Positions 482 through 61,455 of a stretch of DNA of 64,000 nt are shown piece after piece. The stretch lies in the IMG/VR virus record IMGVR_UViG_3300030493_000012. One strand, written 5' to 3'. A program made the translations under genes and the position numbers. Source of the stretch: a virus. Each line of letters opens with the position of its first letter. Position 1 is the first letter of the stretch. The notes under the pieces are model-generated. The model made no database searches. It saw only the letters and a program-made list of their open reading frames with translations, and was not told where the DNA came from.

Positions 482-862
482 TTATGCCTGAGAATCGCCT
501 TTTCCAATCCTAAAACTGCCGTCTTCAAAGTGTTGTGTGCTAAATTCAATAAATTCCGAGTCTTCAAGTGCTATAAACTGATGTGGCGCAAAAGGCGGAA
601 TGTGAATAATTGAACCTTGTTCTAAAATTACCTTCAACTCTTCGCCTGTAAATAAATTGAAATGAATTAGCTCGATTTTACCTTTAATTAGATATAGATG
701 CTCTCGCTTGCCGTGCATATGAGCCGAACATTTTTTGCCTTTCTCAAAGACTAAAATCTTTCCACAATAATCAGGAGAATTGCATATCCAAACTTCTTTT
801 CCCCAGCCTTTTTTATGAATTTCGGGCTTTGTGAACTCAATATTTTGAGGTTTATATTCCAT
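482..862 (-). CDS. Cupin-domain protein
   Basis: KGWGKEVW...CSAHMH...EHLY...PPFAPHQF cupin motifs; start refined to ATG 862, 6 nt after a TATAAT box. Confidence 0.8.
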   Translation of the reverse strand: MEYKPQNIEFTKPEIHKKGWGKEVWICNSPDYCGKILVFEKGKKCSAHMHGKREHLYLIKGKIELIHFNLFTGEELKVILEQGSIIHIPPFAPHQFIALEDSEFIEFSTQHFEDGSFRIGKGDSQA

Positions 863-868
863 TTGAAT

Positions 869-897
869 ATTATAGCCAAAGAAACTCAAAAAGTCAA
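869..897 (-). promoter_or_regulatory. Sigma70-type promoter, leaderless
   Basis: TTGACT-N17-TATAAT-N6-ATG(862). Confidence 0.85.
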
Positions 898-1009
898 GTT
901 TTAGGTTGGCTATATTCGACTGGAACAATGTTTGGCTCGTTAGGAAGTCTAGTTTGGCAGCTTGAAAAACCAAGAATCGTTACTAATAAACAAACATAAA
1001 CTATCTTTT

Positions 1010-1465
1010 TCATAGTCTAAAGAAAAATATACTCTCAATTTCGTCCTTTGTCAACTCAACAATCTTGGAATTTTGAGGCTCAAAAAATCCCATTGTCAAA
1101 TTTCCACCTTCATTATAATAAAAGAAAACATTAATTGCATGACCTTGCATATCAATATCTCTGGTATAATAAATTTCTCCGAAGGCTAAATCAGCCAAAA
1201 TATCGCTGGTGGCTTTGTCTTTTTGGTGTAATTCTTTAATCCAAAAATTAGCGCCCAAGGCAAAATTATCACAGTCTCTCTTGCCTACAATATACTTGCC
1301 AATTTTATTATTGAATTTATATTTTTCCCACGATTTAGCAAATTTTACCTTTATCCAGTCAAGCGAAGGACATAAATACTCGTCATCTCCAAAATAAACA
1401 TGCCTAAAATCTATTTCTTTAGATTTAAGCAGTTCAACTATTTCGTCGGAAGTCGTTATGTGCAT
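1010..1465 (-). CDS. Papain-like / agglutinin C-terminal-type putative cysteine protease
   Basis: DCDNFA...GHAIN...FFEPQ (Cys-His-Glu pattern recalled for the MOA lectin C-terminal-like family). Confidence 0.6.
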   Translation of the reverse strand: MHITTSDEIVELLKSKEIDFRHVYFGDDEYLCPSLDWIKVKFAKSWEKYKFNNKIGKYIVGKRDCDNFALGANFWIKELHQKDKATSDILADLAFGEIYYTRDIDMQGHAINVFFYYNEGGNLTMGFFEPQNSKIVELTKDEIESIFFFRL

Positions 1466-1674
1466 TAGAATTCTTTACCGCAAGCAAAACACTTCTTTTC
1501 TTTGCCTTCAACTAAAACTAAACTGTCTTTTTTGCATGAAGGACAGGTTTGGCGGTCTAAACTATAACTTTTCCAGCAAATTTCGGAGTAGTTGTCTCGA
1601 AAAGATTTGGAAAAGCAATTTCGTGGCTTAGAGCCTTTGCCATTAGACGATTTGCTCTTGTCCATTAGCTTCAA
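1465..1674 (-). CDS. Small phage protein with C-terminal Zn ribbon
   Basis: NGKGSKPR motif; CPSC...CFAC. Confidence 0.6.
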   Translation of the reverse strand: MKLMDKSKSSNGKGSKPRNCFSKSFRDNYSEICWKSYSLDRQTCPSCKKDSLVLVEGKEKKCFACGKEF

Positions 1675-1948
1675 TTACTGGAGTTGGTGCAATTTCGGCA
1701 GGAGGATTTTTTAGAGCGGCCTTTTCGGCTCGACGCTTATCGCGCTCTTCAATTTGATACTTTTTAGCGTAATTAATGTAGCGGTCGCGGTTTTTAACAT
1801 AATGGTCTTTGTCATGCTTTTGAGTGCAAGCCTTGCATTGATACTTGAAACCATGTTTTGCGCCTTTTTGACGATAAAAATGCTCCTTGGTTAAAGGCTT
1901 TTCTTCGGTGCATTTGCTACAGATTCGAGTTAAATTTCGGTCAATCAT
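1643..1948 (-). CDS. Zn-finger protein (CxxC...CxxC of the type found on HNH endonucleases, no nuclease domain seen)
   Basis: RICSKCTEEKPLTKEHF...QCKAC; preceded by GTGTAA-N8-ATG. Confidence 0.65.
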   Translation of the reverse strand: MIDRNLTRICSKCTEEKPLTKEHFYRQKGAKHGFKYQCKACTQKHDKDHYVKNRDRYINYAKKYQIEERDKRRAEKAALKNPPAEIAPTPVIEANGQEQIV

Positions 1949-2200
1949 ACTTTGTATTACACTAATTTTCGGAATGTGACGAAAACTAATTTTCGAACTG
2001 ACATTTGCATTGAATTTGTGTATCTGGCTGGACTACAGCATTTAAAAGTCAACAATATCTTTTGTTTTGCTGAATATTTTGCAGCATAGAGGTTTTTGAT
2101 TCTCAAATATGAGAAATTCATTGTCATCTGACCGAACTGAGATAAATCGTTGTTTCATACTGTTAATTACAGTACAAAAGTGACGAAAATGTTACAAAAA

Positions 2201-3540: not shown

Positions 3541-3569
3541 TTGACTTTTTGGCGCAATTTGGCTATCAT
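3541..3569 (+). promoter_or_regulatory. Sigma70-type promoter, leaderless
   Basis: TTGACT-N17-TATCAT-N6-ATG(3576). Confidence 0.85.
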
Positions 3570-3575
3570 TGAAAT

Positions 3576-3968
3576 ATGCGAGAATTAAAATTTAGAGTTT
3601 GGACAGGTAATAAAATGGAATATAACGTAATGGTTGGTTTTTTGGGCGCATTTTACGTCCAAGGAATTAATCCGCATGATTCTGCTTGTCTTAGTAGTTT
3701 TAATACAATTTATTCTAAAGAAACACCAGTAATGCAATTTACAGGATTGAAAGATTCGACCGGAAAAGATATTTACGAAGGAGATATTATTTTTGACGGA
3801 GAAAGTTCTACTAAAATAATGAAAAAATTTTTTATTGAATATAATAAAGACTATGGCCGTTTTACAGCAATAGGAGTAGGTCGAGAAAGCTGGACTTGGG
3901 TTCTTGATATTCGCTCAACCGGAAAAGTTGTCGGTAATATTTTCGAAAATCTCGAACTACTTAAATAA
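3576..3968 (+). CDS. YopX family protein (copy 1)
   Basis: MRELKFRVW...MQFTGLKD..GKDIYEGDI...VVGNIFEN. Confidence 0.9.
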   Translation: MRELKFRVWTGNKMEYNVMVGFLGAFYVQGINPHDSACLSSFNTIYSKETPVMQFTGLKDSTGKDIYEGDIIFDGESSTKIMKKFFIEYNKDYGRFTAIGVGRESWTWVLDIRSTGKVVGNIFENLELLK

Positions 3969-4845: not shown

Positions 4846-5251
4846 CTTTATATTAAGAGCATGGGACAGAGAAACTAAAAAATTCGCCTCTGTGGCTAGT
4901 TTGGTCATGTTGAGATATGGTCAAGTTGACGCACCAGACCGGCACTATTCATTTTCAAATGACGACTATGATAGATTTGAGTTTTGCAGATTTACTGGGC
5001 TTTTTGATAATAACAACAAACCGATTTTCGAGAATGATATTGTAAAAACGATTTATGACGCTGATAAAATTGGAAAGGTTGTTTTTAGTTCCTCGTTAGC
5101 GTCATTTAGAGTAGCCTCGCTAACAAGAGAGCTAAGTATGCCAATCGTCACATATCGAGTAAATGAAAATTCTCCTAACGAAGGCAAGTTTTTATTGATT
5201 ATAGAAGAGGTTATCGGGAATGTGTTTGAGAATCCAGAGTTAATTTCTTGA
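4835..5251 (+). CDS. YopX family protein (copy 4)
   Basis: LRAWD...RFTGLFD...IFENDIV...IGNVFENPEL. Confidence 0.88.
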   Translation: MNNNFILRAWDRETKKFASVASLVMLRYGQVDAPDRHYSFSNDDYDRFEFCRFTGLFDNNNKPIFENDIVKTIYDADKIGKVVFSSSLASFRVASLTRELSMPIVTYRVNENSPNEGKFLLIIEEVIGNVFENPELIS

Positions 5252-5276
5252 CAAAAAGTAATGATTAGAATATCAT
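5248..5276 (+). promoter_or_regulatory. Sigma70-type promoter, leaderless; -35 box contains the TGA stop of YopX copy 4
   Basis: TTGACA-N17-TATCAT-N6-ATG(5283). Confidence 0.85.
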
Positions 5277-5282
5277 AAAAAT

Positions 5283-5495
5283 ATGAAAATCCTAAAACAC
5301 GCAGCTAAACAAAAAAGATTACGATATTATTATGGAAAATGTTCAAATTGTGGATGTGTTGTTTCTGCTAATTCTGATGAAATTATTTCGTATGGATGGA
5401 GCAGAATATGTCCACCTTATTATTATGTAAGTTGTCCAGAACGAGGCTGTAAAAATACAATAGGCTTATATTCAAAGAAAAAATCTATAAAATAA
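5283..5495 (+). CDS. Small Zn-ribbon protein
   Basis: CSNCGC...CPERGC; own promoter. Confidence 0.7.
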   Translation: MKILKHAAKQKRLRYYYGKCSNCGCVVSANSDEIISYGWSRICPPYYYVSCPERGCKNTIGLYSKKKSIK

Positions 5496-10393: not shown

Positions 10394-10684
10394 TTATGAG
10401 AATAAATCAAAGGTTACATTTTCAACCTTGCAATCCCAATAATCAGACAAAATAGCTTCTGCCCGCGAAAACCACAATTCCTTATTAAAGTTAATATCAT
10501 TATCCGTCAAATCCAAATTTTGAGACTGGCCAAAAATCTCGACTTTGCCAAAATCATTCAAATTGCCCGTAACATTCACGCCAGCCATATTACAATAGGT
10601 TGAATTGCACCCAAGCAACATTGCGCTTGAATCATCTATTTGAACCAAAGGTTTTCCGCAAGCTTTACAAATTAAATTTTTCAT
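10394..10684 (-). CDS. Hypothetical protein with N-terminal CxxC
   Basis: Own promoter TTGCCA-N17-TAAGGT-N6-ATG. Confidence 0.65.
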   Translation of the reverse strand: MKNLICKACGKPLVQIDDSSAMLLGCNSTYCNMAGVNVTGNLNDFGKVEIFGQSQNLDLTDNDINFNKELWFSRAEAILSDYWDCKVENVTFDLFS

Positions 10685-10920
10685 AATTTCACCTTAAACT
10701 TTTCAAACTATCATGGCAAGGTTTATTTTAGACTATTTTTTCTCAAATTTGAGAATTAACCACAAAATCAAACTCCACTAAGTTTTTGGCCTAGTGGAGT
10801 ATCACATATATTTGACTAAATGGGCGGGCTTTTGTTTTCGTGCATATATATTTAGGCTTATTGATTTGAAAATCCGATTATTAAGGCTAGAGCAACAAAA
10901 ATCAATATCATATTTCTAGC

Positions 10921-12609: not shown

Positions 12610-13188
12610 TTAATCCATCCGGCTATCAGTATAAGCATTAATCCCGTATTTTGAAAGCACGGCGCAAAAGGCATTACAATATTTCTCTTTGCGGTCTAAG
12701 CTTTGGTTAAAATCATGGCAGGGAAAGGCCCAACCGCCATAATAGTTTTTATAACCCATTTTGTTGGCTTTCAACCATTTAGCAAAGCCAGAATTTCCCG
12801 GCTTGATAACAGCATTCGCGAATCCGCAACATCCTTCATTGACAACCCAACTTTGGACAACCGGGCTTGAATCATCCAAGGGATTGGCATGACCTTGAAC
12901 AACCATTGGGACTGGCTTGGACGCATTGCCAGCGGCTAGGCCAGCGGCATGGGCCTCATTGAATACCTTTTGATAATCAAGTTTAACGGTCAAAGTTTTG
13001 CCATTTGACTTGTCAATCCCGCCAAGCGCAATCAATTCATTTTTGACCGTAACCGGGTCATTTTGAGCGCGGGTTATAAAACCGCTGGCTTGGCCCTTGG
13101 TTAGCGTCAATTTTCTGACATCCGTTTTTGTGGCCAAATAAAGAGCAAAACTTTGGCGTGGCGTCATGTTTTCGATTGTATCAATCAT
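12610..13188 (-). CDS. Conserved phage hypothetical protein
   Basis: CGFA...FAKWLK...GG...FNQSLDRKEKY..AF..VL...GI.AYTDSRMD, a widespread phage family of unknown function. Confidence 0.75.
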   Translation of the reverse strand: MIDTIENMTPRQSFALYLATKTDVRKLTLTKGQASGFITRAQNDPVTVKNELIALGGIDKSNGKTLTVKLDYQKVFNEAHAAGLAAGNASKPVPMVVQGHANPLDDSSPVVQSWVVNEGCCGFANAVIKPGNSGFAKWLKANKMGYKNYYGGWAFPCHDFNQSLDRKEKYCNAFCAVLSKYGINAYTDSRMD

Positions 13189-13453
13189 TTTTTTGTTTTG
13201 TTAATTGTTTGCCTAACGATTTAACCTTAGTTTTTTGCGCCTAATCTGTCAATTCTAATTTTCAAGATTTTTCAGCAAGTTTTTGATGTCAATCCCAAGA
13301 CAATACAAAGAGACTTTAGCCCGCTCTTTGTTGTCGCTATTGACGCAAGATTTTAAAGTTTCAAACTCAATTCTGGCATTTTCCAGAATTTGCATAAAAA
13401 TAAGGTTATCTTTCATAATTTAAACTCTATTCTTTTTAACCTTGTTTGTCAAT

Positions 13454-13798
13454 CTAAACTTTGGAATATTTGCTTTCGTCCAAAGTAAGATGATTGTCAG
13501 TTTTGTCATTCAACCACAAAGTTTTGACAATTGCGCGATTGCCATCAGGAATCAAAGCCAGTGAAATATCTTTAGTCTCATTGTAAGACTGGCGGATAAC
13601 AACTTTCGCAACACTTTGCCCCAAAATTTCACATTCAACCACATTTTGCGCTGTTATGTCAATTTCCAGAGGGGGCTTAACTTTGCCGTATCTGTCATTC
13701 AGACAAGCTTGCAAACTATGCATGGTAAACTTGCAAACATAATGGCCCAAAGCTTTATTGACCGTGACTGGCAAACCGATTTGTTTATGATATAACAT
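13454..13798 (-). CDS. Conserved phage hypothetical protein
   Basis: HS...DRYG...VKTLWLND...H.TLD..KY; own promoter. Confidence 0.65.
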   Translation of the reverse strand: MLYHKQIGLPVTVNKALGHYVCKFTMHSLQACLNDRYGKVKPPLEIDITAQNVVECEILGQSVAKVVIRQSYNETKDISLALIPDGNRAIVKTLWLNDKTDNHLTLDESKYSKV

Positions 13799-14087
13799 AA
13801 TTTGTTTTTTTGTTATATCTAAACTTAGGCTAATTTGTTTTAATTGTCAACTTTTTATTCAAACTATTTTTGATGATTAGTTAGCGCCAACAATAAAGCC
13901 ATTGTTATAAAGATTATTAGCATAATTTATAGGCCGGAAAAGTAGTGGCGGCAGCAAAAACAAAAGTTTTACCTTGGCTAGGAACATTAGGAACCGCCGA
14001 TTGCCAGTCAAAACAATCTTTTATTTACGGGCTAATATTTGTAACCAAGGCATGGTTTTCTCATTTCTGAGAATATACCATTTGAAA

Positions 14088-14306
14088 TTATTTAATTGCT
14101 CTCGCTGTATTATTCTCAATAAACCAGTCTGGCACATTGCTAGTTTGGAATTCCAAGTGTGTATTTTTGTAGATTAGCCCAAAGCTTGCATGATTTTTGT
14201 TGGCAAACCAAATTTCTGGCTTGTTATCTTCATTAAGCAAAATGTGTTGCCCGTTGCCAATGTAACAATTGTATTTGTAGCCAGCCTGTTTTAATGTTTG
14301 CTTCAT
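14088..14306 (-). CDS. Hypothetical protein
   Basis: Own promoter TTGACA-N17-TAGGCT-N6-ATG. Confidence 0.7.
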   Translation of the reverse strand: MKQTLKQAGYKYNCYIGNGQHILLNEDNKPEIWFANKNHASFGLIYKNTHLEFQTSNVPDWFIENNTARAIK

Positions 14307-14551
14307 AGTTTTAGCCTAACTTTTCAGAACAAAAATGTCAACCTAGTTTTTGGGTAAACTTTCCAAATACTTCATTGCCCCGTTGTAAGTGTTTTGCGCC
14401 TGTTTTTCCTCGCCATTAAAACAAGGATAATAGTCACAATAACCGGCCTTGCGAGCTTTGTCAATTTGCTCGTTTTGCTCTTTTGTCAGTGATTCAAAGT
14501 TTGTTTCCATATTTTTAGTTTGTATTTTTTAGCACGGTTTGTCAAATAAAA

Positions 14552-14721: not shown

Positions 14722-14955
14722 CTATTTGAAACAATTAGGGCAGCGATAATCTAAACGGCCATTAACAGCCCAACCAATTGGCGGTTGAATGAATTTATTC
14801 TTTAAACACTTTTCAATTTCGCCATTAAAATCATCAAGCGTCATTTTGCCAGTATTAGTGCAAATTGTGGTTGAACTATAAGCTTGAGCGCCACACTTTT
14901 TGCAAGTAACCACTGGGCAAACCTTTATTTCGGCGCTAATTAATGTTTGAATCAT
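14722..14955 (-). CDS. Small Zn-binding protein
   Basis: CKKC...CPNC. Confidence 0.6.
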   Translation of the reverse strand: MIQTLISAEIKVCPVVTCKKCGAQAYSSTTICTNTGKMTLDDFNGEIEKCLKNKFIQPPIGWAVNGRLDYRCPNCFK

Positions 14956-15363
14956 ATTTTTAGTTTTAATTTTTGCGCCTCAAATGTCAAACTTTATTAT
15001 AAGTAATTCGCCCTGTATATTCAAGCAAATTAACCATTAGCTTGCAAATCAAAATCCCAAGCAACACCCCATCACCAAAATTCAAATCCGAAATCACAAA
15101 CCAAGCTTTCCAGCCAAGGTAAAGAGAAACATAAAAATGCCAATATGCAAAAATTACTCTGTCAAGTGTGTCCATAATTCTATATTTGGTTATTTAGTCC
15201 GAAAATACAAGTTCTAATTTGGTTTATTTTAGCGAGAGCAATTAGCGACAGCCAAAAATTAAAAACAGAGTTTTGTTTTAGCTTTGTATCTCTGTTAATG
15301 CTTAACGATAACCCGGACTTTGTAAGTCTTATTACCGTCCAATTTAGGTTTGCAGCCTAAAAA

Positions 15364-15552: not shown

Positions 15553-15590
15553 GTTTTAAATTTAAACTATTTTATTTACTTTGTCAATCT

Positions 15591-15764: not shown

Positions 15765-15852
15765 ATTTTGATTATTGATTATTTGGCCTATGATGTCAAC
15801 AAAAAAACTGGCTAAGTTTTTATGCCTAGCCAACTTTGCGAATCTTTTACCG

Positions 15853-23779: not shown

Positions 23780-23780
23780 T

Positions 23781-46082: not shown

Positions 46083-46113
46083 TTTTTAATTCTAAACTTT
46101 CGGAACATTAAAG

Positions 46114-46473: not shown

Positions 46474-46504
46474 AATTTTAGGATAATCTTTATAAACAAC
46501 AAAG

Positions 46505-46738: not shown

Positions 46739-47036
46739 CTTTATTTAGAAATTCAGCAATTATATCGCCGTGACACTTTCCCGGCTTACAAAAACAACCT
46801 AGAACTTTATCTTTCAAGGCTAAAATTCTTTGTTTGTATTGTTTATCATTTTCTATTCTTGAATAAAAGTCAACCTTAAAAGCGGCAATTGCCTCTGCTC
46901 TGGTATGAATTTTCTTACAGATGGGGCAATATCTATCTACAGGATGCTTGTTTCCAAAATAACCATCTTTGCCATGACCGGGTCGGCCAATATAAACATC
47001 GTATTTTTCAAAATTAAGATTTACAACCTTGGTCAT
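46716..47036 (-). CDS. DUF4326-family protein
   Basis: YDVYIGRPG...GN...LGCFCKP..CHGDII; start refined to MTKVVN. Confidence 0.85.
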   Translation of the reverse strand: MTKVVNLNFEKYDVYIGRPGHGKDGYFGNKHPVDRYCPICKKIHTRAEAIAAFKVDFYSRIENDKQYKQRILALKDKVLGCFCKPGKCHGDIIAEFLNKDDKENKT

Positions 47037-47313
47037 TTTTAGCCTCTGTAATTGGTTGAGCAGGAGCATCTTCAATGATAATTAGCTTTTCTTCCTTTGG
47101 TTTAGCCCACACATTAGTTTTTGGGTCTAAAACAACCAAAGATACACTTACCTTCTGGTCGCCAGTTAGGTTTTGGCCATAGAATAGGAAGTCTTCTGGC
47201 TTGTGTTTAATGCTTTCAAATACGTTTTTTTCGTTTTCTAAGCAATCTTCTGGAATCTCATATTCCCGAACGATATTGTATTGATAACGGATTTTAACAG
47301 TTTTAGTTTTCAT
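47014..47313 (-). CDS. Hypothetical protein
   Basis: TTGACT-N17-TATTCT-N6-ATG. Confidence 0.65.
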   Translation of the reverse strand: MKTKTVKIRYQYNIVREYEIPEDCLENEKNVFESIKHKPEDFLFYGQNLTGDQKVSVSLVVLDPKTNVWAKPKEEKLIIIEDAPAQPITEAKNDQGCKS

Positions 47314-47400
47314 TATCTAAGAATAGTGCTTTTCGTAACGAAAGTCAAGAAATTTGCAAAAAAATACAGTAAGTTGCCAACATGCAGTGTAATATACAGT

Positions 47401-48426
47401 ATGAAAAAATGTTATAAGTGCAAACAGGAAAAGGAATTAAATGAATTTTATAATTGCAAGAGCCAGCCAGACGGAAAGCAACAAAAATGCAAAGAGTGCT
47501 TTAAGATATTCGGAAAAATACAAAATGAGAGAAAACATCAATTAGGTATTTTTAAATATTATAATCATATTTTATCTAAAGAAGAAAAGTCGCAAATAGT
47601 TAAAGAGTACGCAGAAAATCATCTTTCAACGAAGTTAATTGCTGAGAAATTCAAAACGAATACCACGACTGTATTAAGGCTATTGAAAAAAAATAATATA
47701 AAAATTGATAGATTAAATTGTCAACGCAAATATAAAATAATTAATATAAACTATTTTGACAACATAGATACTGAGGATAGGGCATATTTCTTGGGGCTAT
47801 TGTGGGCTGATGGCTGTAATTATAAAGTAGATGGCAAAGCGCATCAAATTGTTATTCATTTGCAAAACAGAGACAGACATATTCTTGAAGAATTTGCTAC
47901 CAAGATTTATGGAGATACAAAAATTTTGTCAATTAGAAAGAAAAAAGACGAAAGATGCCAATTAATGTGTTGCTTTAGAATACCTAATAAATATATCTCT
48001 GATGTATTATTTGAGCACGGGATGGTTCCAAGAAAAAGTTTGATAGTTGATTGGCCTAAAAACCTGCCGGAAAACATGATTAAGCATTTTATTCGTGGTG
48101 AATATGATGGCGATGGCGGAATAAGTTATAATTCTAATTCAAAAAATTATGAGGTTATGTTTATAGGAAGCGTTCTTTTTATCAGTAAGCTTCAAAACTA
48201 TCTAAATAAAGAACTTAATGATAATTTTAGCCTGAAAATAGAAAAGAAAAAATTCTCAGTTCCAATGGCTTATTTAAGAATACATGGCAATCTTAAATGT
48301 AAAAAATTCCTAGACTGGCTTTATGATGGCGCGAAAACAAAACTAGACCGAAAATACCAGAGGTATCTCAGTCTATGTGAGTTAGTTCAAAAACTACATC
48401 CAGAATTAGGCGCAAAACCTGCCTAG
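47401..48426 (+). CDS. Free-standing LAGLIDADG homing endonuclease with N-terminal Zn finger/HTH
   Basis: AYFLGLLWADG and FIRGEYDGDG; start refined to ATG 47401. Confidence 0.9.
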   Translation: MKKCYKCKQEKELNEFYNCKSQPDGKQQKCKECFKIFGKIQNERKHQLGIFKYYNHILSKEEKSQIVKEYAENHLSTKLIAEKFKTNTTTVLRLLKKNNIKIDRLNCQRKYKIININYFDNIDTEDRAYFLGLLWADGCNYKVDGKAHQIVIHLQNRDRHILEEFATKIYGDTKILSIRKKKDERCQLMCCFRIPNKYISDVLFEHGMVPRKSLIVDWPKNLPENMIKHFIRGEYDGDGGISYNSNSKNYEVMFIGSVLFISKLQNYLNKELNDNFSLKIEKKKFSVPMAYLRIHGNLKCKKFLDWLYDGAKTKLDRKYQRYLSLCELVQKLHPELGAKPA

Positions 48427-49242
48427 TGAATCACGCTTATTGTGATAATGAATTTGCTTTACCGTTTCCTCTGGCAGACTAGCTTGATTTGCCGCTGAAT
48501 TACTGGTAAAACACCATCCGTTGTTTCGCACTTCTTGTACCGTTCCAATATGAGAAATTACCTCATATTCGCAACAGCGCAGCTTTTGATAACTATGGTC
48601 GGCAGGACAACTGCAAACGTTTTTCGGGTCTATTTTTACTAAAACCACCATAGAATCATTGTCGCCATATTGCATGATATAAATTTGACTTCCCGCATGA
48701 AATCCGACGTGACAGCCAACATTACTATCATCGCTTACTTCTGTACGTGGCATTTTAGCAACCGCGCCAATATCATGCTTGAAAGTTTTGCCGGTGAATT
48801 TATCCCACAAATCAGGATTAACAGCCTTCATCGCCAAAAAACAACCATCGTCAGTTACAGGGAACTTGTATCGCTCAATATAGCTCCAAAGTTGCTCGCG
48901 ACTCTTAAAAGAAGGATTCTCCATCAAATTATCCAAAAACCGACACAGCGGTTGAATATCAAAACCCTCGCGCTTAAACTCAATAATCTTGTCACACACA
49001 GCATTATTAATAGCCTTTCCTTTATACAAAACCTCTCCATCAACAATCTGAACATTAGTTCCTTGCATCTTGGTATTCAAGGATTTAGCTACGTTGACCA
49101 AATCATCAATAAGATGATAAGCCTTATCCTTAATGGCCTGTTTAATAGCCTTAAAATTAGGATGTGAATCATCCACGGTGAAAGGCTGGCTGTTAAAATA
49201 TCCAGCAATCCAGTTTTTACCAATTGTAAACGCATTATTCAT
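48406..49242 (-). CDS. rIIB: rIIB-like protein
   Basis: FLDNLMENPS...QLW...DGCFLAMKAV...MPR.EV.DD...C..G.HAG...KLRCCEYEV. Confidence 0.88.
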   Translation of the reverse strand: MNNAFTIGKNWIAGYFNSQPFTVDDSHPNFKAIKQAIKDKAYHLIDDLVNVAKSLNTKMQGTNVQIVDGEVLYKGKAINNAVCDKIIEFKREGFDIQPLCRFLDNLMENPSFKSREQLWSYIERYKFPVTDDGCFLAMKAVNPDLWDKFTGKTFKHDIGAVAKMPRTEVSDDSNVGCHVGFHAGSQIYIMQYGDNDSMVVLVKIDPKNVCSCPADHSYQKLRCCEYEVISHIGTVQEVRNNGWCFTSNSAANQASLPEETVKQIHYHNKRDSLGRFCA

Positions 49243-49512
49243 ATTTTTGTTTTTGTTGTTGTTTAACTATGTTTATTATTGACTAAATCTTGCTCGAAGT
49301 CAACTTCTTTTTGCAGAAATTTGAGACTTCTTTGGACAAATCACCATATTTGGCAATTAAAATCATTAGCTCGGAACTTGGGCACTTAGGACAAGTGTTA
49401 AGACCGCCTTCAAGAAAGTCCCAGCCATCCAAAAATGCTTCTTTTGTACTATTATAAGTGCCTGAAAATCCGCACATTGCACAATTTAAACTAAAATTTT
49501 TATCCATAAACA

Positions 49513-49977
49513 TTAAGAATACAAACCATAACCAAACTGCACATTCAATTCTTTGTTCCAATAACCATTAATAACAGGAATATCATCTTTAACAACTTTT
49601 AGTCTAATAGCCGGATTGGCAATTTGAACAAACCAAATCCACAATTTAATAAAGTCTTTTTCACCAATATAATTATCTTCGTTATTCTTGTTCCATCCAT
49701 GTTGCTTAAGGATTTCTAATGCTTTCATTGGAATTAGGCAATCCTCATATTCAGTACAAATATTAAAATCTTTGCTATCTTGGTAATCGCGTTTAATTCC
49801 TGTAAAATTCTCGTCACCGCCGTCATGATTAAAAGAAACACCTGTCATTTTGCAGCTATCCTTATATGCTTTCTGGACAACATCAACAGGCAAATTTGAT
49901 TCTAAAAGAATTTTGTCAGATTTACCATGACCGTCATTTGACCAGTCACCAAGAACTAGATACATTTTGTATTTCAT
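49513..49977 (-). CDS. Conserved phage hypothetical protein
   Basis: LGDWSNDGHG...C.EYED...FGYGLY. Confidence 0.7.
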   Translation of the reverse strand: MKYKMYLVLGDWSNDGHGKSDKILLESNLPVDVVQKAYKDSCKMTGVSFNHDGGDENFTGIKRDYQDSKDFNICTEYEDCLIPMKALEILKQHGWNKNNEDNYIGEKDFIKLWIWFVQIANPAIRLKVVKDDIPVINGYWNKELNVQFGYGLYS

Positions 49978-50258
49978 AATTTTGTAACTTCGCTAAATTT
50001 AGACTTTGCCTGCTCAAGTGTCAAGTACGAAAATCCAAAATCTCCCCAAGTCGAGGAACTAGGCATACACTCGGCGGCTTCAATTTTTGTTCCAGCTATC
50101 ATGTAATCTCCATGTTCCTGAACCTTAATTACTTCAAAACTTGTGTGCGAATCTTTGGTTTTGGAATAAATAGCCCAGCCATTTTTTCGGACTAATTGTT
50201 TGAAAGAATAACCTTTTTGGTCAGCGCGGCCATCAAAGTTTGTCTGTAGTATTTTCAT
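49974..50258 (-). CDS. Conserved phage hypothetical protein
   Basis: FEVIKV...E.MPSSSTWG..GFSY. Confidence 0.7.
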   Translation of the reverse strand: MKILQTNFDGRADQKGYSFKQLVRKNGWAIYSKTKDSHTSFEVIKVQEHGDYMIAGTKIEAAECMPSSSTWGDFGFSYLTLEQAKSKFSEVTKL

Positions 50259-52142: not shown

Positions 52143-52334
52143 TCATTTGACAATACAGCCTTCAAAGCGGCGATATTTTCTGATTCTGAATTTGGAACCG
52201 GGATTCATTCCTTCGGCTGTCAATAAGAGATATTCGGCGTAGCGAATTGTTCTGGCGAACTCTCCCTGAGAATAATTCGGAAGTTTCCATCTTTTTTGAT
52301 TTTTATTGTATTCTTGTATAATATAAAATACCAT
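52143..52334 (-). CDS. Hypothetical protein
   Basis: TTGACT-N17-TAAACT-N6-ATG. Confidence 0.65.
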   Translation of the reverse strand: MVFYIIQEYNKNQKRWKLPNYSQGEFARTIRYAEYLLLTAEGMNPGSKFRIRKYRRFEGCIVK

Positions 52335-52343
52335 AGTTTTAGT

Positions 52344-53297
52344 TTAGACTTTCGGAACTAATGAGTCAATCAATTTCTGACCAAAATTCGTAATTTCCCG
52401 GCGACCGTCAATTTTGATAAGATTTTCTGACAATAAAAATTGCTCAATATCTTTTCGGACAGTAGAAACATCCAATCTAAGTTTTGCGCCAATGGCTGTA
52501 AGTGTTTGTGGCCCACGATTTTTGAGAAAACTTAAAAGTTCGATTTCATTACTTGTCAAACCTAAAGGCTTGATATTGAGAATACTTTTTAAATCAGACC
52601 ATTCTTTAGCTCCAAAACTATCTTTCTTATTTTGAGCGCAATACTGCTGAATATCCTTTGAGATTTTGACAATTTCTCGCGGAGATTGGCGGCTGATAGG
52701 AATAATTTCCTCAATAACATTATCCTGCAAATTAATAGTTTTAAGATGTTTAAGTAGAATATCGCCAAGGTCAGAAAATGAATAAGGTTCTAATTCAATT
52801 CTTTTAAGCCTAGACAACAAAGGTTTTGATAACTCTTCTGGGTTTGTGCTAACCATTATCAGTGAAAATTGCGTGAAATTAAATTCGAAAACCTCGCCGC
52901 CATGTGCGGCTGTAGTAGTATTATTTTCATTAGGCTGCAAAACAGAAAGCATCCAATCTTTAACTTCGGACTCACTTGAATGACACTCATCCCAAACCAA
53001 CGTAACCTGTTTACCATTAGCCACGTGCGGAATAATTATGTTATCTACTAAACCTTTAACCTTCTTAACTGACGCTCCATTAATTTCAATCCAAGGTTTT
53101 GTTTGTTTGGTGGTTGGGTCAATTAGATTTTTGGCAATAATTCGCGCCATCTCAGTTTTACCAGAGCCTCTTTGTGAAGTCAAAAGCAAAGGCGGCAAAA
53201 TACCATTTGTTCGCTGGCCTTCAATATAAAAATTTACGCCGCGACGAGTATTTGACTGGCCAATAAAACCTTGACCTAGATAGTCTGTTTGTGTCAT
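52344..53297 (-). CDS. RuvB-like AAA+ ATPase
   Basis: Walker A SQRGSGKT, Walker B WDE, sensor STN, LLSRL Arg finger, C-terminal winged helix. Confidence 0.8.
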   Translation of the reverse strand: MTQTDYLGQGFIGQSNTRRGVNFYIEGQRTNGILPPLLLTSQRGSGKTEMARIIAKNLIDPTTKQTKPWIEINGASVKKVKGLVDNIIIPHVANGKQVTLVWDECHSSESEVKDWMLSVLQPNENNTTTAAHGGEVFEFNFTQFSLIMVSTNPEELSKPLLSRLKRIELEPYSFSDLGDILLKHLKTINLQDNVIEEIIPISRQSPREIVKISKDIQQYCAQNKKDSFGAKEWSDLKSILNIKPLGLTSNEIELLSFLKNRGPQTLTAIGAKLRLDVSTVRKDIEQFLLSENLIKIDGRREITNFGQKLIDSLVPKV

Positions 53298-53332
53298 GTT
53301 TTAAGTCTAACTTTTCGGAACATACTTGTCAA

Positions 53333-54750: not shown

Positions 54751-54966
54751 TTACTTGATTTGAATAGCTTTTTTGTTCAAAACTTCTAAATTAGAATCTT
54801 TGTCCGAAAAGGGAATGTAATTAGTTTCTACCTTGGTAACAACTGCTTTTGTCACCGCTGGAAAACCTACCATATTCGCGGCCAAAGATATAGCGTCTCT
54901 AGGCCCAAACTGTGTTTCTATGTCAACTTCAATAAAGAGTCTTGTTTTGTAGAATGGTTTGTTCAT
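54751..54966 (-). CDS. Hypothetical protein
   Basis: TTGACT-N17-TATCCT-N6-ATG. Confidence 0.65.
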   Translation of the reverse strand: MNKPFYKTRLFIEVDIETQFGPRDAISLAANMVGFPAVTKAVVTKVETNYIPFSDKDSNLEVLNKKAIQIK

Positions 54967-55237
54967 AATTTAAGGATAAACTTTCGGAACTCGAAAGTCA
55001 AGGCTTTCTTCTGGTCGCTGGTGATTTTGATTTAACCATATTGTTTTTCCGGTTTTCAAGGAATGTTTTGGTGACGCTATGACTTCGTGTTTTGGATTTA
55101 CTATTAATAATCTCTAAACCAACAGATTTTGCTGAGTCAGAGAGTTTAGAGACCAATTTTTTTTGATTGACAGCGGTTTCTTGCGACATCAATCCTAAAA
55201 TAGCCGCATCCTTTGGTGTTATCCAAGCGGTTTCCAT

Positions 55238-56293
55238 TTATTGTTTATAATTCTGATTAATAACTTTAACCGACCATTCTTTCTGTAATTTATCTGAATA
55301 AAAAGGCTCGACGCTTCTGATAACAATTCCTTCGCCTGCCGCGCCATTTGGATATTTTACATTATTCGCAATTTGTTGGAAATACTCAACATTATGAATT
55401 TCTGGATTAAAATCCTCAATACCAATAACATCAACCATTTTTAGGCCAATCTTATTACAGAATTCAACCATAGCATCCAAACCTAAATACTTTCGAGTAT
55501 CAATATTGAAAATATTAAAAATATGAAATTCCGTGTCTGTTAGTCCAAGCCTGTTACCGTTGAACTTGACACCCGTAGTTTCACCTTGAATAATCCAGTT
55601 GCCGCCATAATTAGTCATTTTGTTTTTAATATCAAACTTATCAGATACCAACCAAGGATAGCCATTACCTTCCTTCATTGACAGAGAGCGAGAGCAAGCC
55701 TGAAAATCTCCATTATTGTAAACAAAACTTGTGCTACTCCCGTCCCGCTTAATACTTAGATAGATTTTTTTACCAATTAGCTCGTCCAAAACACCTTTTC
55801 GGCAAGATAGTAAGTTAGTTTCATCGGTTTTTCGGAAGCCAATAGCCGTTGGCAAACCGCCCCGCGCTTCACCTTGTAGTTTAATATCTAATGGCTTTTC
55901 ATAATAAGCGGTTTTGGTAATTTCAGTTATATCGTCACCAATATTAAAACTCTCTGGATTTTGACCATAAAACTCTAAAACAGAGGTAGGCACAACCAAA
56001 CCTTGACTATAAACACCGCGCAATCTTGCTGTCCAAACTTTGAATTTGCGTGGCTCTAAAAATGCAAAAGCCGGGTTTTCCTTGTCAACAATACTATCAA
56101 TGCAAATATAGACAACCTTCTCGTCTATCTTAAATTCATCTTTTTTAACAACACATTTCCAAGAATTTTCATTTAATGAAGCCAAAACTATTTTGTCGGC
56201 ATCAGGTATTGGCTCTAAGCCTTTGATAGTACAAATGGTGGCCAAATTTTTAGGCCAAGGTTCTGTTTTAATGCTTATATCGGTAATATTCAT
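55238..56293 (-). CDS. RNA ligase, DRB0094 family
   Basis: OB-like N-terminus PIPDADKI...RLRGVYSQGL; KRDGSS (motif I), CSR, QGE, FNIF, EGIV, KVI. Confidence 0.88.
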   Translation of the reverse strand: MNITDISIKTEPWPKNLATICTIKGLEPIPDADKIVLASLNENSWKCVVKKDEFKIDEKVVYICIDSIVDKENPAFAFLEPRKFKVWTARLRGVYSQGLVVPTSVLEFYGQNPESFNIGDDITEITKTAYYEKPLDIKLQGEARGGLPTAIGFRKTDETNLLSCRKGVLDELIGKKIYLSIKRDGSSTSFVYNNGDFQACSRSLSMKEGNGYPWLVSDKFDIKNKMTNYGGNWIIQGETTGVKFNGNRLGLTDTEFHIFNIFNIDTRKYLGLDAMVEFCNKIGLKMVDVIGIEDFNPEIHNVEYFQQIANNVKYPNGAAGEGIVIRSVEPFYSDKLQKEWSVKVINQNYKQ

Positions 56294-56324
56294 GGTTCAA
56301 GAATAGGTTTTTATGCTCAAAATG

Positions 56325-56852
56325 TCAATACTCAATTAGCCTACCATTACAATCATATTCTTGTAATATTTGTTTGGCTTTTTGAATCTCTTTTTGCTTC
56401 TTTTTCTCTCTTTTTTCTTGTTCGATTTTGTTTAGCTGCCTTTTCCGAATATCAATTTGTTTTTGTAAAGCCTCTGGTACTTGACAGGATACCATCAGCC
56501 GATTATTGCGTTTCTCATTTCCGACAATTTCATCAATAATAGAAATCTTTACCTTTCCTTCTTTAACGTCAGCAATAGAAATCGGAACGCATTGAGTATA
56601 AACATTGAAATAATAATAGGTATCAGCCACAACAACCTCTTCTGTCTTTTGTGGAATCTCGGATTTGAGAATAAAGCCCCAGTGTTCAGCTATTTTCTTA
56701 AAAATCTTGTTGTCTCGGAGCTTACCAATAAATTCATGAGCTACAGATTCAATCTGACTTTCTGACATTTTTTCGTCAATATCAAAAACATCAATTTTTA
56801 CCTCACCGTCTTCGTAATTACTTCCGTCACAATATGCATCAATAATTTTCAT
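56325..56852 (-). CDS. Hypothetical protein with coiled-coil C-terminus
   Basis: TGA inside the next -35 box. Confidence 0.65.
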   Translation of the reverse strand: MKIIDAYCDGSNYEDGEVKIDVFDIDEKMSESQIESVAHEFIGKLRDNKIFKKIAEHWGFILKSEIPQKTEEVVVADTYYYFNVYTQCVPISIADVKEGKVKISIIDEIVGNEKRNNRLMVSCQVPEALQKQIDIRKRQLNKIEQEKREKKKQKEIQKAKQILQEYDCNGRLIEY

Positions 56853-57886: not shown

Positions 57887-58351
57887 TTATTGATTAATAA
57901 ACTCCAAAAGATACACAAAATCTTCTTTGGTCAACGATTGCAACGCACACAACATAAACAGATTTTCATTTGTTGGTGATTCATTGTAGATTTTATCAAT
58001 ATCTCGCATAATATTGTAATACTGTTTTTCTGGTTGTCCTTTGTTTATTGCGTCGGCAACCTTTCTCACAAAAGAATACCAAATATTGACGCCAAAATCA
58101 ATATTAATCATTTTCCAAAGCATCGTGGCAAGAGGCGAGTCCATTCCTTTTCTAAAAAAAGTATGGATTCCTTGTGAAATTTCGCACTCTTTCTCTGTAA
58201 GGTTTTCCTGTTTTGTCAAGGAATTAAGATATTCCTGCAAATCACTGACCGCGCCAGAAACTTTTGATTTCACACTATGCTCCTGTGAGGAAGCTATCGC
58301 ATATCCAAGTTTTTCAATCGCAGAACCAATATTAAGTTGTTTTTCGTCCAT
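57887..58351 (-). CDS. Hypothetical protein
   Basis: TTGACT-N17-TAATCT-N6-ATG. Confidence 0.7.
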   Translation of the reverse strand: MDEKQLNIGSAIEKLGYAIASSQEHSVKSKVSGAVSDLQEYLNSLTKQENLTEKECEISQGIHTFFRKGMDSPLATMLWKMINIDFGVNIWYSFVRKVADAINKGQPEKQYYNIMRDIDKIYNESPTNENLFMLCALQSLTKEDFVYLLEFINQ

Positions 58352-58787
58352 ATTCTAAGATTAGTCTTTCTCGCCGCCCAAGTCAACAGCATTTTGACAA
58401 AAATATCCAATTCCAGCAAAACTTTCCTCTTTATTCTGTAAAGTCCGAAACCAGACTTCTTTACCATTAACAAAGGTGACTTGGACAATCAGCCACAAAC
58501 ATCCAATGTATAATTTATATTGCCGACCTATTGCTGGTGTATCAATCATAATTTTATTCAATATTTTTGCACTGGCGCACAACCAACATAAAAAGTAACT
58601 GGCTTATCGCCTTTAATCTTAAAATATTTATAAGACTTTGGTTTAGAAGAGCATACGGCTGTAAGTTTTCCAAAAGGCCTATCTATAGATAAAACCTGAG
58701 TGCTAAATAAACTGTTTCGATTTTTGTTGTTGAAACAATAGATTCTGTCGCCTGTTTTTAGATTATTAAACTGTTGTTTGGTCATAA

Positions 58788-59237: not shown

Positions 59238-59836
59238 AATTTAACCTTAATCCAGTTGCTCTCGCTATGCCAAACCAAGCATTTCCAGCTAACAACATAT
59301 CTGTTAGGCTCAGCCACATAAAGATATTGGCGACCATTAATTTCAAAATCAACAATTTGCTCAGGAACAGCTTTTCTGGAGTAATTTTCGTACAAATATG
59401 AGGCTATTTTGTGAGTTAGTATTCTTTGGCATTTATATTTTAGTCCAGAAACAAATTCGTGCTTTTGGCTGGCTTGATAATGAGCTTGCCCTAATTCAAA
59501 ATTGAGTTTAGTTTCAGGCTCTTTAACCCAATCAAAACTTATACCATCCATTTTCTGTCCATAATACTCGCTATTGCTAACCTTATATAGCCAAAAATTC
59601 TTGTCTTCGTGAACAAAAAACTTGTGTGTAGGCTGGCAATGTGCTTTTCGCTCTTTTGTTCCGGCAATAGCCTTAAAAGTTTCCTGCCATTTTTGAGTAT
59701 AAGGCTCGACTTTTAAACATAAATGATGATAGATAAACTCAATCTCTGAAATTGACCGGCTCTTTTTTATAGCATGGCCAGCAACTCTCTCTACAGAATT
59801 CAACCAATCCATTCTTTTTTGTGAATAATCTGTCAT
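59234..59836 (-). CDS. Hypothetical protein
   Basis: 200 aa; ATGA overlap with the NUDIX gene. Confidence 0.65.
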   Translation of the reverse strand: MTDYSQKRMDWLNSVERVAGHAIKKSRSISEIEFIYHHLCLKVEPYTQKWQETFKAIAGTKERKAHCQPTHKFFVHEDKNFWLYKVSNSEYYGQKMDGISFDWVKEPETKLNFELGQAHYQASQKHEFVSGLKYKCQRILTHKIASYLYENYSRKAVPEQIVDFEINGRQYLYVAEPNRYVVSWKCLVWHSESNWIKVKL

Positions 59837-59992
59837 ATCAATGATTGCCTTTATTTTTAAACCAATCTTTTATGAAATCATAAACTAAGTAAAATCCAAT
59901 AAATCCAGTTAAGGAAAATATCAAAAATGTTGTCAATAAAACAATAATTAGTGTTTTCAATAATCTAAGTATATGGTTTTAGAACGAAAATG

Positions 59993-60409
59993 TCAACAAT
60001 ATTGTTCAATTTGGCCATTCCAATTGCTGTAATAAACACTTTTAAATGGAAAATAAGCAATCAAATTACGACAAAAATTACAAGGCCGCGCAAATGAAAC
60101 CTCATTATTTCTATTTATTCTAACATTAAAAAGAACACAGTCTTTGGTTCTAATATTAGTTAAATTTCTAAGTTTATTTATCGCAGAAAGCTCGCTACAG
60201 ACGCCCTTCCAATCAAGAATATCTTTGTTTTTGCCTCTGTTGAAATTAAGCAAATTAATAGGTGAAGTCTTGATGCTATTCTTACCAATCGAAACAACTC
60301 GGCTTTTTGACATTATAATCGAAAAATGCTGGCAACGCATTGTCGAATAAGGGTCATAAAGAGCCTTAGCAATTTCGATGCTTTTGTTAAAATTATCAAT
60401 AATAGCCAT
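59993..60409 (-). CDS. Cytidine/dCMP deaminase-like protein (CSE in place of HAE)
   Basis: H..II...VSIGKN...VCSE.SAI...RPCNFC; start refined to MAIIDN. Confidence 0.7.
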   Translation of the reverse strand: MAIIDNFNKSIEIAKALYDPYSTMRCQHFSIIMSKSRVVSIGKNSIKTSPINLLNFNRGKNKDILDWKGVCSELSAINKLRNLTNIRTKDCVLFNVRINRNNEVSFARPCNFCRNLIAYFPFKSVYYSNWNGQIEQYC

Positions 60410-60654
60410 TTTACACGATTTTCCAAATTGTTTTTGAAACGGTTTGCGGCTCAACTAGATACGCATGAAACCTATTTCCAACATCATAAAAGCAGTCTCC
60501 GAAAGCTTCTATCTTCCAAAATTTTCCAGTTTTAATTTCTTTATAGACAGCGAATCCATAATAACCATTAACCAAAAAAGTTTCATCAGCAATTTCAGTT
60601 TCTTTGGCCAGCCATTCTTTTAATTCTTTGATTGAATCAAATGTTTTGTTCATA

Positions 60655-60978
60655 TCAATAAATAGGCTCGCCGTCAGGAAAAACCCAACTTTCGGTAATA
60701 ACAACAATTTTATTTACTTTTCGTACTGTGAATTTGTTTTTATTGCCAAAATCGTGCGAATATTTTGAACCATTGTAACTATTATGCGTTTCTACCATCC
60801 AAAAAAGTCCTTCTGATTCAAAAATGTCATATCCATTTTCGTTACCGTCTTTATCGCAATGAAAATTGTAGTCAACTAATGTAGCGGTTTTAGTCCAATC
60901 AAGAAGTTCTTGTTCCGAGTAAAATATTTTATTCATGTATCCTAGAATAAACTTTCTTAACAGGCTTGTCAATACCAA
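60655..60978 (-). CDS. Hypothetical protein
   Basis: FESEGLFW...VRKV...W; start uncertain. Confidence 0.55.
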   Translation of the reverse strand: MVLTSLLRKFILGYMNKIFYSEQELLDWTKTATLVDYNFHCDKDGNENGYDIFESEGLFWMVETHNSYNGSKYSHDFGNKNKFTVRKVNKIVVITESWVFPDGEPIY

Positions 60979-61122
60979 CTCCCGCTTCTTTCAAAATTTC
61001 CCGCGCCTTAATTAACAAAATTTGTTTTTCTTTGTTTGAAAGATGGTGCTTTCGCACTTCTAATTCATCAGCAACTTGCCTAAATCTGTCCATTACTGTA
61101 TTGTATTCTTTGTTTTTCATCT

Positions 61123-61419
61123 TTAATGAGTTTTGTTGTTTCTCAAATTTGCGATTTCTTGATTTTTGGCTTTTAGCTCGGCTTGGAGGCTAATCAATTC
61201 TTTATATCGCTTATCCGAAACAATCCAAGTTTGAATTGTATTTTGTGCTTGGTCTAGTTTTTGTGTTAGTCTATTAATTTCAAAACCAGCGTCCGTTAAA
61301 TCTTGCTTTAAATCGTCAAACTTATCAGCCGCATCCATTAAATTTTTATATGTATCACTCAAATAACCAAAATTTTTCTTGGCTATTTCTCTCAAAATTC
61401 CACTAAAGTTTCTTTCCAT
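61123..61419 (-). CDS. Hypothetical coiled-coil protein
   Basis: TTGACT-N17-TATTAT-N6-ATG. Confidence 0.65.
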   Translation of the reverse strand: MERNFSGILREIAKKNFGYLSDTYKNLMDAADKFDDLKQDLTDAGFEINRLTQKLDQAQNTIQTWIVSDKRYKELISLQAELKAKNQEIANLRNNKTH

Positions 61420-61455
61420 AGTCTAATAATACATTTTCGGAACCTAAAAGTCAAC

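Follow-up and report, generated by a model that had tools for sequence, protein, structure and literature searches.

A dense array of sigma70-type promoters abutting start codons in a phage genome, with predicted leaderless early mRNAs

Gene content and promoter-ATG motif of the window

The DNA analysed here, a 64,000-nt stretch referred to as the window, is the reverse strand of positions 100164-164163 of G000, an IMG/VR phage record (IMGVR_UViG_3300030493_000012) of 182,115 bp with 35.5% GC and a CheckV completeness of 98%, and it carries a dense array of promoter motifs placed directly before the start codons of small genes. About 150 genes were predicted in the window; nearly all lie on the minus strand, most encode fewer than 100 amino acids (aa), and most have no family match. 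The recognisable minus-strand products are a RIIA-like protein of 693 aa (phrog_612, E 2e-94), a RuvB-like AAA ATPase and an RNA ligase, and a 209-aa product matches phrog_1392, a family without assigned function. The opposite strand carries a TnpB/IS605 OrfB gene and LAGLIDADG-type genes, and Rfam and tRNA scans of the window returned no match. The phage is not T4-like: it encodes a DnaE-type polymerase and a 2145-aa open reading frame (ORF) of tape-measure size, together with one sigma-like protein at G000 166042-166710, just outside the window.

The original prediction had described TTGAC(A/T), 17 nt, a -10-like hexamer, 6 nt and ATG in front of about 50 genes. This motif was present at all 13 of the starts given as examples, and the number proved to be an undercount. 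Genome-wide, TTGACN-N17-NANNNT-N5-7-ATG occurred 76 times in 182,115 bp, and 68 copies (89%) opened an ORF of at least 35 aa, whereas each of 30 second-order Markov shuffles held 0-1 such copies (about 0.2 on average); by a hand estimate from base composition, an ORF of at least 35 codons would follow the pattern by chance in about 8% of cases. We derived a position matrix from the 57 copies with a 6-nt gap between the -10 hexamer and the start codon (N6; N5 and N7 likewise) and applied it to all 5,313 ATGs of the genome. The scores were bimodal, with 73 ATGs at 10-35, 60 of them inside the window, and a background tail that stopped near 0. In the window, leaderless-type promoters precede 63 genes (53 at N6, nine at N7 and one at N5), and the regular-expression list adds two more units, at ATGs 30052 and 52334. 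These results confirm that the motif is real and far from random.

The geometry of the motif is strict. The spacer is 17 nt without exception, and ATG follows 6 nt downstream of 44, and 7 nt downstream of 6, of the 83 strict TTGACN-N17-TANNNT sites in the genome. A logo of the 57 copies combines what characterises a sigma70/SigA-type promoter (a TTGACA-like -35 box, a spacer of 17 +/- 1 nt and a TAnnnT -10 hexamer) with a -10 consensus of TAnnCT and an A/T-rich, UP-like tract at -44 to -38. Units occur at a density of about one per 0.55 kb over 34 kb. The claim of one promoter per gene was borne out for 52 of the 81 genes where the units are densest (window 13,200-47,400, minus strand); over the whole window such a promoter serves 63 of about 150 genes (~42%), and about 69 genes are without any promoter of their own.

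The promoters also overlap the genes upstream of them. All six coordinates at which an upstream gene had been said to end in the TGA of TTGAC fit the ORF table. Across the 73 units of the genome, 20 upstream genes stop at this TGA, 6 stop at a TAA or TAG within the -10 hexamer, and 13 more stop no more than about 10 nt 5' of the -35 box. Among the 31 ORFs that enter a promoter, 20 stop at the TGA of the -35 box (binomial P = 4e-4 against the one third expected from reading frame). We read this overlap as compaction, in which coding sequence would avoid the constrained spacer and -10 hexamer and the TGA would be the last free stop; a stop at this position gives rise to the recurrent 31-nt intergenic gap.

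Table 1. Predicted leaderless units, leadered units and a terminator-like hairpin in the window. Coordinates are window positions; gap, nucleotides between the -10 hexamer and the start codon; aa, ORF length; scores are matrix scores; SD, Shine-Dalgarno sequence.
Feature	Span	Strand	Gap or leader	Elements, product and remarks
Unit, ATG 862	482..897	-	N6	TTGACT-17-TATAAT; 126 aa
Unit, ATG 3576	3541..3968	+	N6	TTGACT-17-TATCAT; 130 aa; first gene of plus-strand paralogue block
Unit, ATG 5283	5248..5495	+	N6	TTGACA-17-TATCAT; 70 aa; upstream stop in TTGAC, 5249-5251
Weaker unit, ATG 10684	10394..10719	-	N6	TTGCCA/TAAGGT; 96 aa; score 13.0
Leadered, ATG 13188	12610..13252	-	35-nt leader	A-rich, no SD
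Unit, ATG 13416	13255..13452	-	N7	53 aa
Leadered, ATG 13798	13454..13850	-	23-nt leader	no SD
Unit, ATG 14306	14088..14341	-	N6	72 aa
Unit, ATG 14510	14343..14545	-	N6	55 aa
Unit, ATG 14955	14722..14990	-	N6	77 aa
Weak unit, ATG 15175	14987..15210	-	N6	TTGTAT/AAATAT; 62 aa; score 11.2
Unit, ATG 15552	15364..15587	-	N6	62 aa
Unit, ATG 15764	15591..15799	-	N6	57 aa
Strong terminator-like hairpin	15804..15837	-		13 pairs + T run; abuts -35 box of unit 15764
Unit, ATG 16833	16660..16868	-	N6	TTGATT; 57 aa
Unit, ATG 18137	17796..18172	-	N6	113 aa
Unit, ATG 18403	18155..18438	-	N6	82 aa; upstream stop in TTGAC, 18435
Unit, ATG 18662	18435..18697	-	N6	TTGATT; 75 aa
Unit, ATG 18897	18694..18932	-	N6	67 aa
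Leadered, ATG 19177	18929..19225	-	19-nt leader	no SD
Leadered, ATG 19550	19275..19622	-	43-nt leader	
Leadered, ATG 20054	19866..20096	-	13-nt leader	
Leadered, ATG 20366	20100..20412	-	17-nt leader	
Unit, ATG 20643	20413..20678	-	N6	76 aa
Unit, ATG 20971	20681..21006	-	N6	96 aa
Leadered, ATG 21305	21015..21367	-	33-nt leader	
Unit, ATG 21550	21371..21586	-	N7	59 aa
Unit, ATG 22116	21703..22151	-	N6	137 aa
Unit, ATG 22812	22183..22847	-	N6	209 aa; phrog_1392
Unit, ATG 24151	23912..24186	-	N6	79 aa
Unit, ATG 24388	24218..24423	-	N6	56 aa
Unit, ATG 24698	24420..24733	-	N6	92 aa
Unit, ATG 24928	24734..24963	-	N6	64 aa
Leadered, ATG 26327	25860..26382	-	26-nt leader	
Leadered, GTG 26805	26386..26851	-	17-nt leader	
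Unit, ATG 27006	26848..27041	-	N6	52 aa
Unit, ATG 27441	27031..27476	-	N6	TTGATT; 136 aa
Unit, ATG 27702	27517..27737	-	N6	61 aa
Unit, ATG 27841	27734..27876	-	N6	35 aa
Unit, ATG 29584	29459..29619	-	N6	41 aa
Unit, ATG 30052	29834..30087	-	N6	TTGACA-17-TAGACT; 72 aa
Unit, ATG 30305	30096..30340	-	N6	69 aa
Unit, ATG 31034	30792..31069	-	N6	80 aa
Unit, ATG 31720	31508..31755	-	N6	70 aa
Unit, ATG 31977	31756..32013	-	N7	73 aa; upstream stop in TTGAC, 32010
Unit, ATG 32207	32010..32241	-	N5	65 aa
Unit, ATG 32459	32238..32494	-	N6	73 aa
Unit, ATG 32784	32491..32819	-	N6	TTGATT; 97 aa
Unit, ATG 33115	32816..33150	-	N6	99 aa
Leadered, ATG 33675	33376..33737	-	33-nt leader	
Unit, ATG 33908	33741..33943	-	N6	55 aa
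Unit, ATG 34482	34072..34517	-	N6	136 aa
Unit, ATG 34978	34766..35013	-	N6	TTGATT; 70 aa; upstream stop in -35 box, 35010
Weaker unit, ATG 35861	35010..35896	-	N6	TTGATA; 283 aa; score 12.6
Unit, ATG 36035	35871..36070	-	N6	54 aa
Unit, ATG 36771	36262..36806	-	N6	169 aa
Unit, ATG 37222	37001..37258	-	N7	73 aa
Unit, ATG 37447	37259..37482	-	N6	62 aa
Unit, ATG 38766	38584..38802	-	N7	60 aa
Unit, ATG 39254	39021..39289	-	N6	77 aa
Leadered, ATG 39883	39500..39931	-	19-nt leader	
Unit, ATG 40293	40132..40329	-	N7	53 aa
Unit, ATG 40543	40316..40578	-	N6	TTGAAT; 75 aa
Unit, ATG 42656	40575..42691	-	N6	693-aa RIIA-like protein, early-gene marker
Leaderless-type promoter, ATG 44754	44545..44789	-		69 aa; inside longer ORF 44545-45495
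Unit, ATG 45692	45492..45728	-	N7	66 aa
Unit, ATG 46082	45696..46117	-	N6	128 aa; upstream stop in TTGAC, 46114
Unit, ATG 46473	46114..46508	-	N6	119 aa
Unit, ATG 47313	47014..47348	-	N6	99 aa
Leadered, ATG 49242	48406..49303	-	32-nt leader	278 aa; G001 orthologue leaderless-type (N5)
Leadered, ATG 49977	49513..50024	-	18-nt leader	
Unit, ATG 52334	52143..52369	-	N6	TTGACT-17-TAAACT; 63 aa
Unit, ATG 53297	52344..53332	-	N6	317-aa RuvB-like AAA ATPase
Unit, ATG 54966	54751..55001	-	N6	71 aa
Unit, ATG 56293	55238..56328	-	N6	351-aa RNA ligase; upstream stop in TTGAC, 56325
Unit, ATG 58351	57887..58386	-	N6	154 aa
Leaderless-type promoter, TTG 59960	59838..59996	-	N7	40 aa; sole non-ATG unit of matrix list
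Unit, ATG 60936	60655..60972	-	N7	93 aa
Unit, ATG 61419	61123..61454	-	N6	98 aa; GC hairpin + T run directly 5' of -35 box
Leadered, ATG 62335	61973..62414	-	50-nt leader	

Two further sequence families touch these promoters. The word TTCCGAAA has 90 copies in G000, spread over both strands, where base composition predicts 7, and stands at a constant -23, within the spacer, in 7 promoters (window examples on the minus strand: 46098-46105, 53313-53320 and 54982-54989). It has 7 copies in G001 and 3 in G002, two phage genomes introduced below. TCCGAAA has 144 copies in G000, in every frame and orientation, 34 of them intergenic. The TTCCGAAA word may mark a site of protein binding, nicking or modification. 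Repeat family D8, a box TTGCTCTCGC(T) that reads GCGAGAGCAA on the plus strand, has 11 copies in the genome. In the window it is found within 10349-24222 (e.g. 12574-12614, 15206-15246, 22147-22187 and 24182-24222), and in 4 promoters it lies about 65 nt 5' of the ATG; an activator or other regulator might bind there at a subset of promoters.

Predicted start sites, relatives and read-through

With an N6 gap, the A of the ATG is the seventh base after the -10 hexamer, the position preferred in start-site selection by E. coli. In 51 of the 57 copies a pyrimidine occupies -1, and +1 is A; pyrimidine -1/purine +1 is the preferred start-site dinucleotide. Spacing, -1 and +1 thus agree, at the level of sequence geometry, with the earlier placement of the ATG at the predicted +1. 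The claim that no Shine-Dalgarno sequence (SD) can fit likewise stood: there is no room for one, and SD-like tetramers precede 1.3% of these starts, compared with 14% of other genes and 7% at random. The start codon is ATG throughout the units except for one GTG (16428) and one TTG (59960). Since no SD fits, -1 is a pyrimidine and +1 is A, leaderless mRNA from sigma70-type promoters is the best reading. We consider it probable that the array consists of early promoters of the host sigma70/SigA type, fused to the start codon so that the first gene of each transcript is carried on a leaderless mRNA; we infer from the sequence that these promoters are active and early, that +1 falls on the A of the ATG and that translation is leaderless.

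The longest-ORF calls contain the promoter at ATGs 862, 15764, 24928, 27441, 32459, 33115, 40293, 44754 and 60936. The true start of these genes is probably the promoter-adjacent ATG, so that ORF tables would overextend them by 2-82 codons; at ATG 44754 the alternative is an internal promoter within a 316-aa ORF.

Subsequently, the arrangement was sought in other phages. A pattern scan of viral contigs, in which single chance matches stood among the matches listed, surfaced the genomes G001-G003. G001, a 166.5-kb genome with direct terminal repeats and 25-50% aa identity to G000 in core genes, carries 23 strong promoters of the same kind, of which 13 have an N6 or N7 gap, and its AAA ATPase orthologue retains the promoter 7-8 nt from its ATG. 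G002 (53% GC) has few genes in common with G000, yet holds 14 promoter copies at N6, and the reversed pattern, run as a control, gave 0 copies there. In four sister-clade loci (82-88% nt identity), the -35 box, the -10 hexamer, the 17-nt spacer length, the N6 gap and the ATG are kept, and the sequences of spacer and discriminator vary. No leaderless promoter arrangement was found in phiKZ or AR9. SD-like words precede 55% of the genes of G002, though it shares the leaderless promoter signature; because G002 uses SD and G000 and G001 almost none, the hosts appear to differ in initiation style.

The units had also been called self-contained, which the analysis of terminators contradicted. Terminator-like sites stayed at the level of shuffled sequence (for each 20-kb half, 18 compared with 13-14), and folding energy upstream of the promoters equalled the genomic background (-6.14 vs -6.10 kcal/mol); a clear hairpin with a T run is present in only a few units, such as those next to 15804-15837 and upstream of 61454. 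Because terminators are not enriched, transcripts probably run into downstream units. Furthermore, an A-rich, Kozak-like start context, with A favoured from -5 to -3 and T just before the start codon, extends genome-wide in both G000 and G001: of 148 promoter-free genes in G000, 61-66% have A at each of positions -3 to -5, and 59% have T at position -1. As all genes carry this context, the AAA before the ATG is not promoter-specific, and read-through or internal cistrons are probably translatable.

Several of these observations weigh against leaderless translation as the principal route to protein. With the A-rich -5 to -3 context shared by promoter-free genes, internal initiation on read-through mRNA may supply much of the protein. 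About 14 window genes combine the same promoter type with an A-rich leader of 13-50 nt that lacks an SD. The rIIA-like gene is leaderless in G000 and has a 22-nt leader in G001, and conversely the 278-aa gene is leadered in G000 and N5 in G001; since orthologues switch between the two forms, the leaderless state is not obligatory. In addition, the gene calls were home-made, from codon log-odds and greedy tiling, which renders the counts of promoter-free genes approximate. The shared start context and the interchange of leadered and leaderless forms, together with the lack of terminator enrichment, would suit an account in which the promoters are real, protein is made mainly from read-through polycistronic mRNA by SD-independent internal initiation with little contribution from leaderless initiation, and the coincidence of +1 with the ATG is a by-product of compaction. 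Compaction alone, however, does not predict that the gap should peak so sharply at N6, that a pyrimidine should precede the A at +1, or that ATG should be used almost exclusively; overlap with the upstream gene would leave the distance between promoter and start codon free. The N6 peak also recurs in phages that differ in GC content and SD usage. We therefore regard this account as quite unlikely and leaderless first-gene mRNA as the better explanation.

Gene turnover in the hyperplastic block

The array lies in a hyperplastic block of about 100 mostly orphan small genes, and G001 has homologues of only about 4 of them. Window 42657-48405 is, relative to G001 and G002, a 5.7-kb insertion between the RIIA-like gene and the conserved 278-aa gene, which are adjacent in G001; it holds 4-5 leaderless units and, on the opposite strand, TnpB (43323-44447) and a LAGLIDADG-type gene (47281-48426).

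Such plasticity invites the view, put forward in the original prediction, that the units are mobile cassettes joined at shared promoter sequences. Promoter-early stem-loops (PeSLs) combine a sigma70 promoter, a stem-loop terminator and an SD with the start codon (PMC2839356). In a PeSL-like scheme, recombination would act on the promoter and carry promoter and gene together as one unit, within a phage or from one phage to another, and the scarcity of G001 homologues and the run of small units and selfish genes between G001-adjacent genes are compatible with it. The promoters, however, share only consensus positions: they are 49% identical on average from -45 to -1, with a longest common run of 18 nt. 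Units are not duplicated (there are almost no paralogues) and their N-termini are diverse; duplication as the origin of the units was accordingly rejected. A spacer stem-loop was considered as well, as T-rich and then A-rich halves are present, and was rejected for want of covariation; spacer hairpin energy was -0.90, against -0.96 with permuted partners.

The comparison of gain and loss breakpoints that had been proposed earlier was run on the four sister-clade loci, as no close relative of G000 was found; megablast with G000 against cultured phages gave no near relative, and single-protein scans of viral contigs and of metagenome contigs gave no close one. ORF boundaries lay no further than 30 nt from 75 of the 117 unique edges (64%), and promoters no further than 45 nt from 15 (13%); for comparison, 32 of 167 ORF starts (19%) have a promoter. 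Junctions were thus not enriched at promoters, although a few interrupt a promoter or coincide with the ATG that follows a conserved one (L142:8884, L142:13528), as the cassette scheme would have it. Because the edges track ORF boundaries, genes appear to turn over one by one, with promoters not favoured as junctions. That promoters move genes around is not supported, and a PeSL-like origin of the array is unlikely. The reading as promoter-cassette shuffling is restricted accordingly: turnover in this lineage appears to track gene boundaries rather than promoters.

Searches bearing on the host gave leads at most. Terminase and RNA ligase matches were remote and mixed, a 510-aa query had no match, and a TnpB scan of genomes was empty. 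The sole match of a DnaE profile search was one Latescibacterota metagenome-assembled genome, at 28% identity; an Atlas look-up of the class II ribonucleotide reductase returned viral clusters for the most part, and also one cyanobacterial cluster, a lead only. The DnaE polymerase is a single 844-aa ORF in G001 (L124:17454-19988), and in G000 (L003:16095-19978) and L033 it is in two pieces with an oppositely oriented gene between them.

Early transcription and comparison with known systems

We propose that the host housekeeping RNA polymerase, of the sigma70/SigA type, would read the array as early promoters. Transcription would begin at the A of the ATG, and ribosomes would bind the 5'-terminal AUG of the leaderless mRNA. 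The array would thereby drive about 100 mostly orphan small genes along with the RIIA-like, AAA ATPase and RNA ligase genes. As most units have no terminator, each promoter probably reads into downstream genes, giving nested, overlapping transcripts whose downstream genes would still be translatable through the shared A-rich, SD-less start context. Fusion of promoter and ATG would save space, with gaps down to 31 nt and the TGA, or a TAA or TAG of the -10 hexamer, doubling as a stop codon.

Assignment to an early class read by the host polymerase rests on the match to the bacterial consensus, on the RIIA-like gene, and on the presence of a different motif at structural genes together with a sigma-like gene. 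This other motif, GTGTAAT(T), lies 8-40 nt 5' of many structural-gene starts and is followed by purine-rich (AAGGAAAGG-like) leaders, for example at G000 7430-7460, 12410-12440 and 27620-27680; it also precedes antisense genes in the window. GTGTAAT(T) likely marks a late-promoter class, which the phage sigma-like protein plausibly reads. One could instead suppose that the start-codon promoters themselves are read by a phage-directed polymerase or sigma factor, given that the phage encodes the sigma-like protein and that TTCCGAAA at a fixed -23 hints at an added regulator, or that the motif has some other role in the DNA, as a protein-binding or recombination site. The position-by-position match to the canonical -35 box, 17-nt spacer and -10 hexamer, plus the UP-like tract, makes this highly improbable, and GTGTAAT on the structural genes is the better candidate for a phage sigma factor.

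The array can be compared with several known systems. PeSLs occur in the T4-type phages RB49/phi1, T4/PST and KVP40/nt-1 (PMC2839356, PMC4122927). Like PeSLs, the presumed early promoters of G000 number in the dozens, are of a strong sigma70-consensus type, follow an AT-rich tract and are concentrated in hyperplastic regions before small orphan genes, with the stop codon of the upstream gene adjoining the promoter. The G000 units differ in having neither a stem-loop or terminator component nor an SD, and in placing the start codon at the predicted +1 rather than behind a leader; their promoters diverge from one another instead of being near-identical repeats, and G000 does not belong to the T4-like phages.

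Leaderless genes with such a -10 spacing are found in Actinobacteria as well. In Deinococcus, leaderless genes have TANNNT 6-7 bp before the ORF, with TACACT the commonest -10 variant (PMC12340547). The G000 units resemble those of Deinococcus-Thermus in the TANNNT 6-7 bp 5' of the start codon, the missing SD and the predicted +1 at the first base, and their TAnnCT variants recall TACACT. Unlike those genes, they add a full consensus -35 box at 17 nt, and they belong to a phage of 35% GC that packs its units at the density given above; the other genes of G000 also lack an SD, so that there is no second, SD-using class.

Among phages, the large Thermus phage P23-45 reportedly (work of Berdygulova and colleagues, 2011) has a temporal class that is mostly leaderless. 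In the Thermus phage phiYS40, most middle and late mRNAs are leaderless, and infection raises IF2 and lowers IF3 (PMC3594737). G000 resembles phiYS40 as a large phage with a temporal class of mostly leaderless transcripts, predicted in the case of G000, but in phiYS40 the leaderless classes are middle and late, whereas in G000 it is presumed early and has full -35 and -10 elements; moreover, no homologue of IF3 or bS21, possible helpers of leaderless translation, was found when looked for in G000. Cluster O mycobacteriophages have three predicted leaderless SigA-like promoters per genome (PMC4351075), compared with about 75 in G000. The leaderless layout is thus already known from other phages and bacteria, and G000 is a very large example of it. 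A bolder version, in which the whole early programme would consist of some 75 leaderless single-gene units whose 5'-AUG mRNAs are privileged in an SD-independent host, for instance through initiation remodelling as in phiYS40, and in which the promoter array is perhaps a sink drawing polymerase off host genes, seems to us doubtful.

Should transcription prove to start at the ATGs, we would know of no phage genome with a larger set of leaderless transcription units; the genome is one of low GC whose genes almost never use a Shine-Dalgarno sequence. The array would then offer a natural library of about 75 promoter variants of fixed geometry for the study of start-site choice and 5'-AUG translation. 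For the annotation of such phages, the arrangement suggests a simple rule, to pick the ATG 6-7 nt past TAnnnT, which mends over-long ORFs of the window such as those at 862, 15764, 24928, 32459 and 33115.

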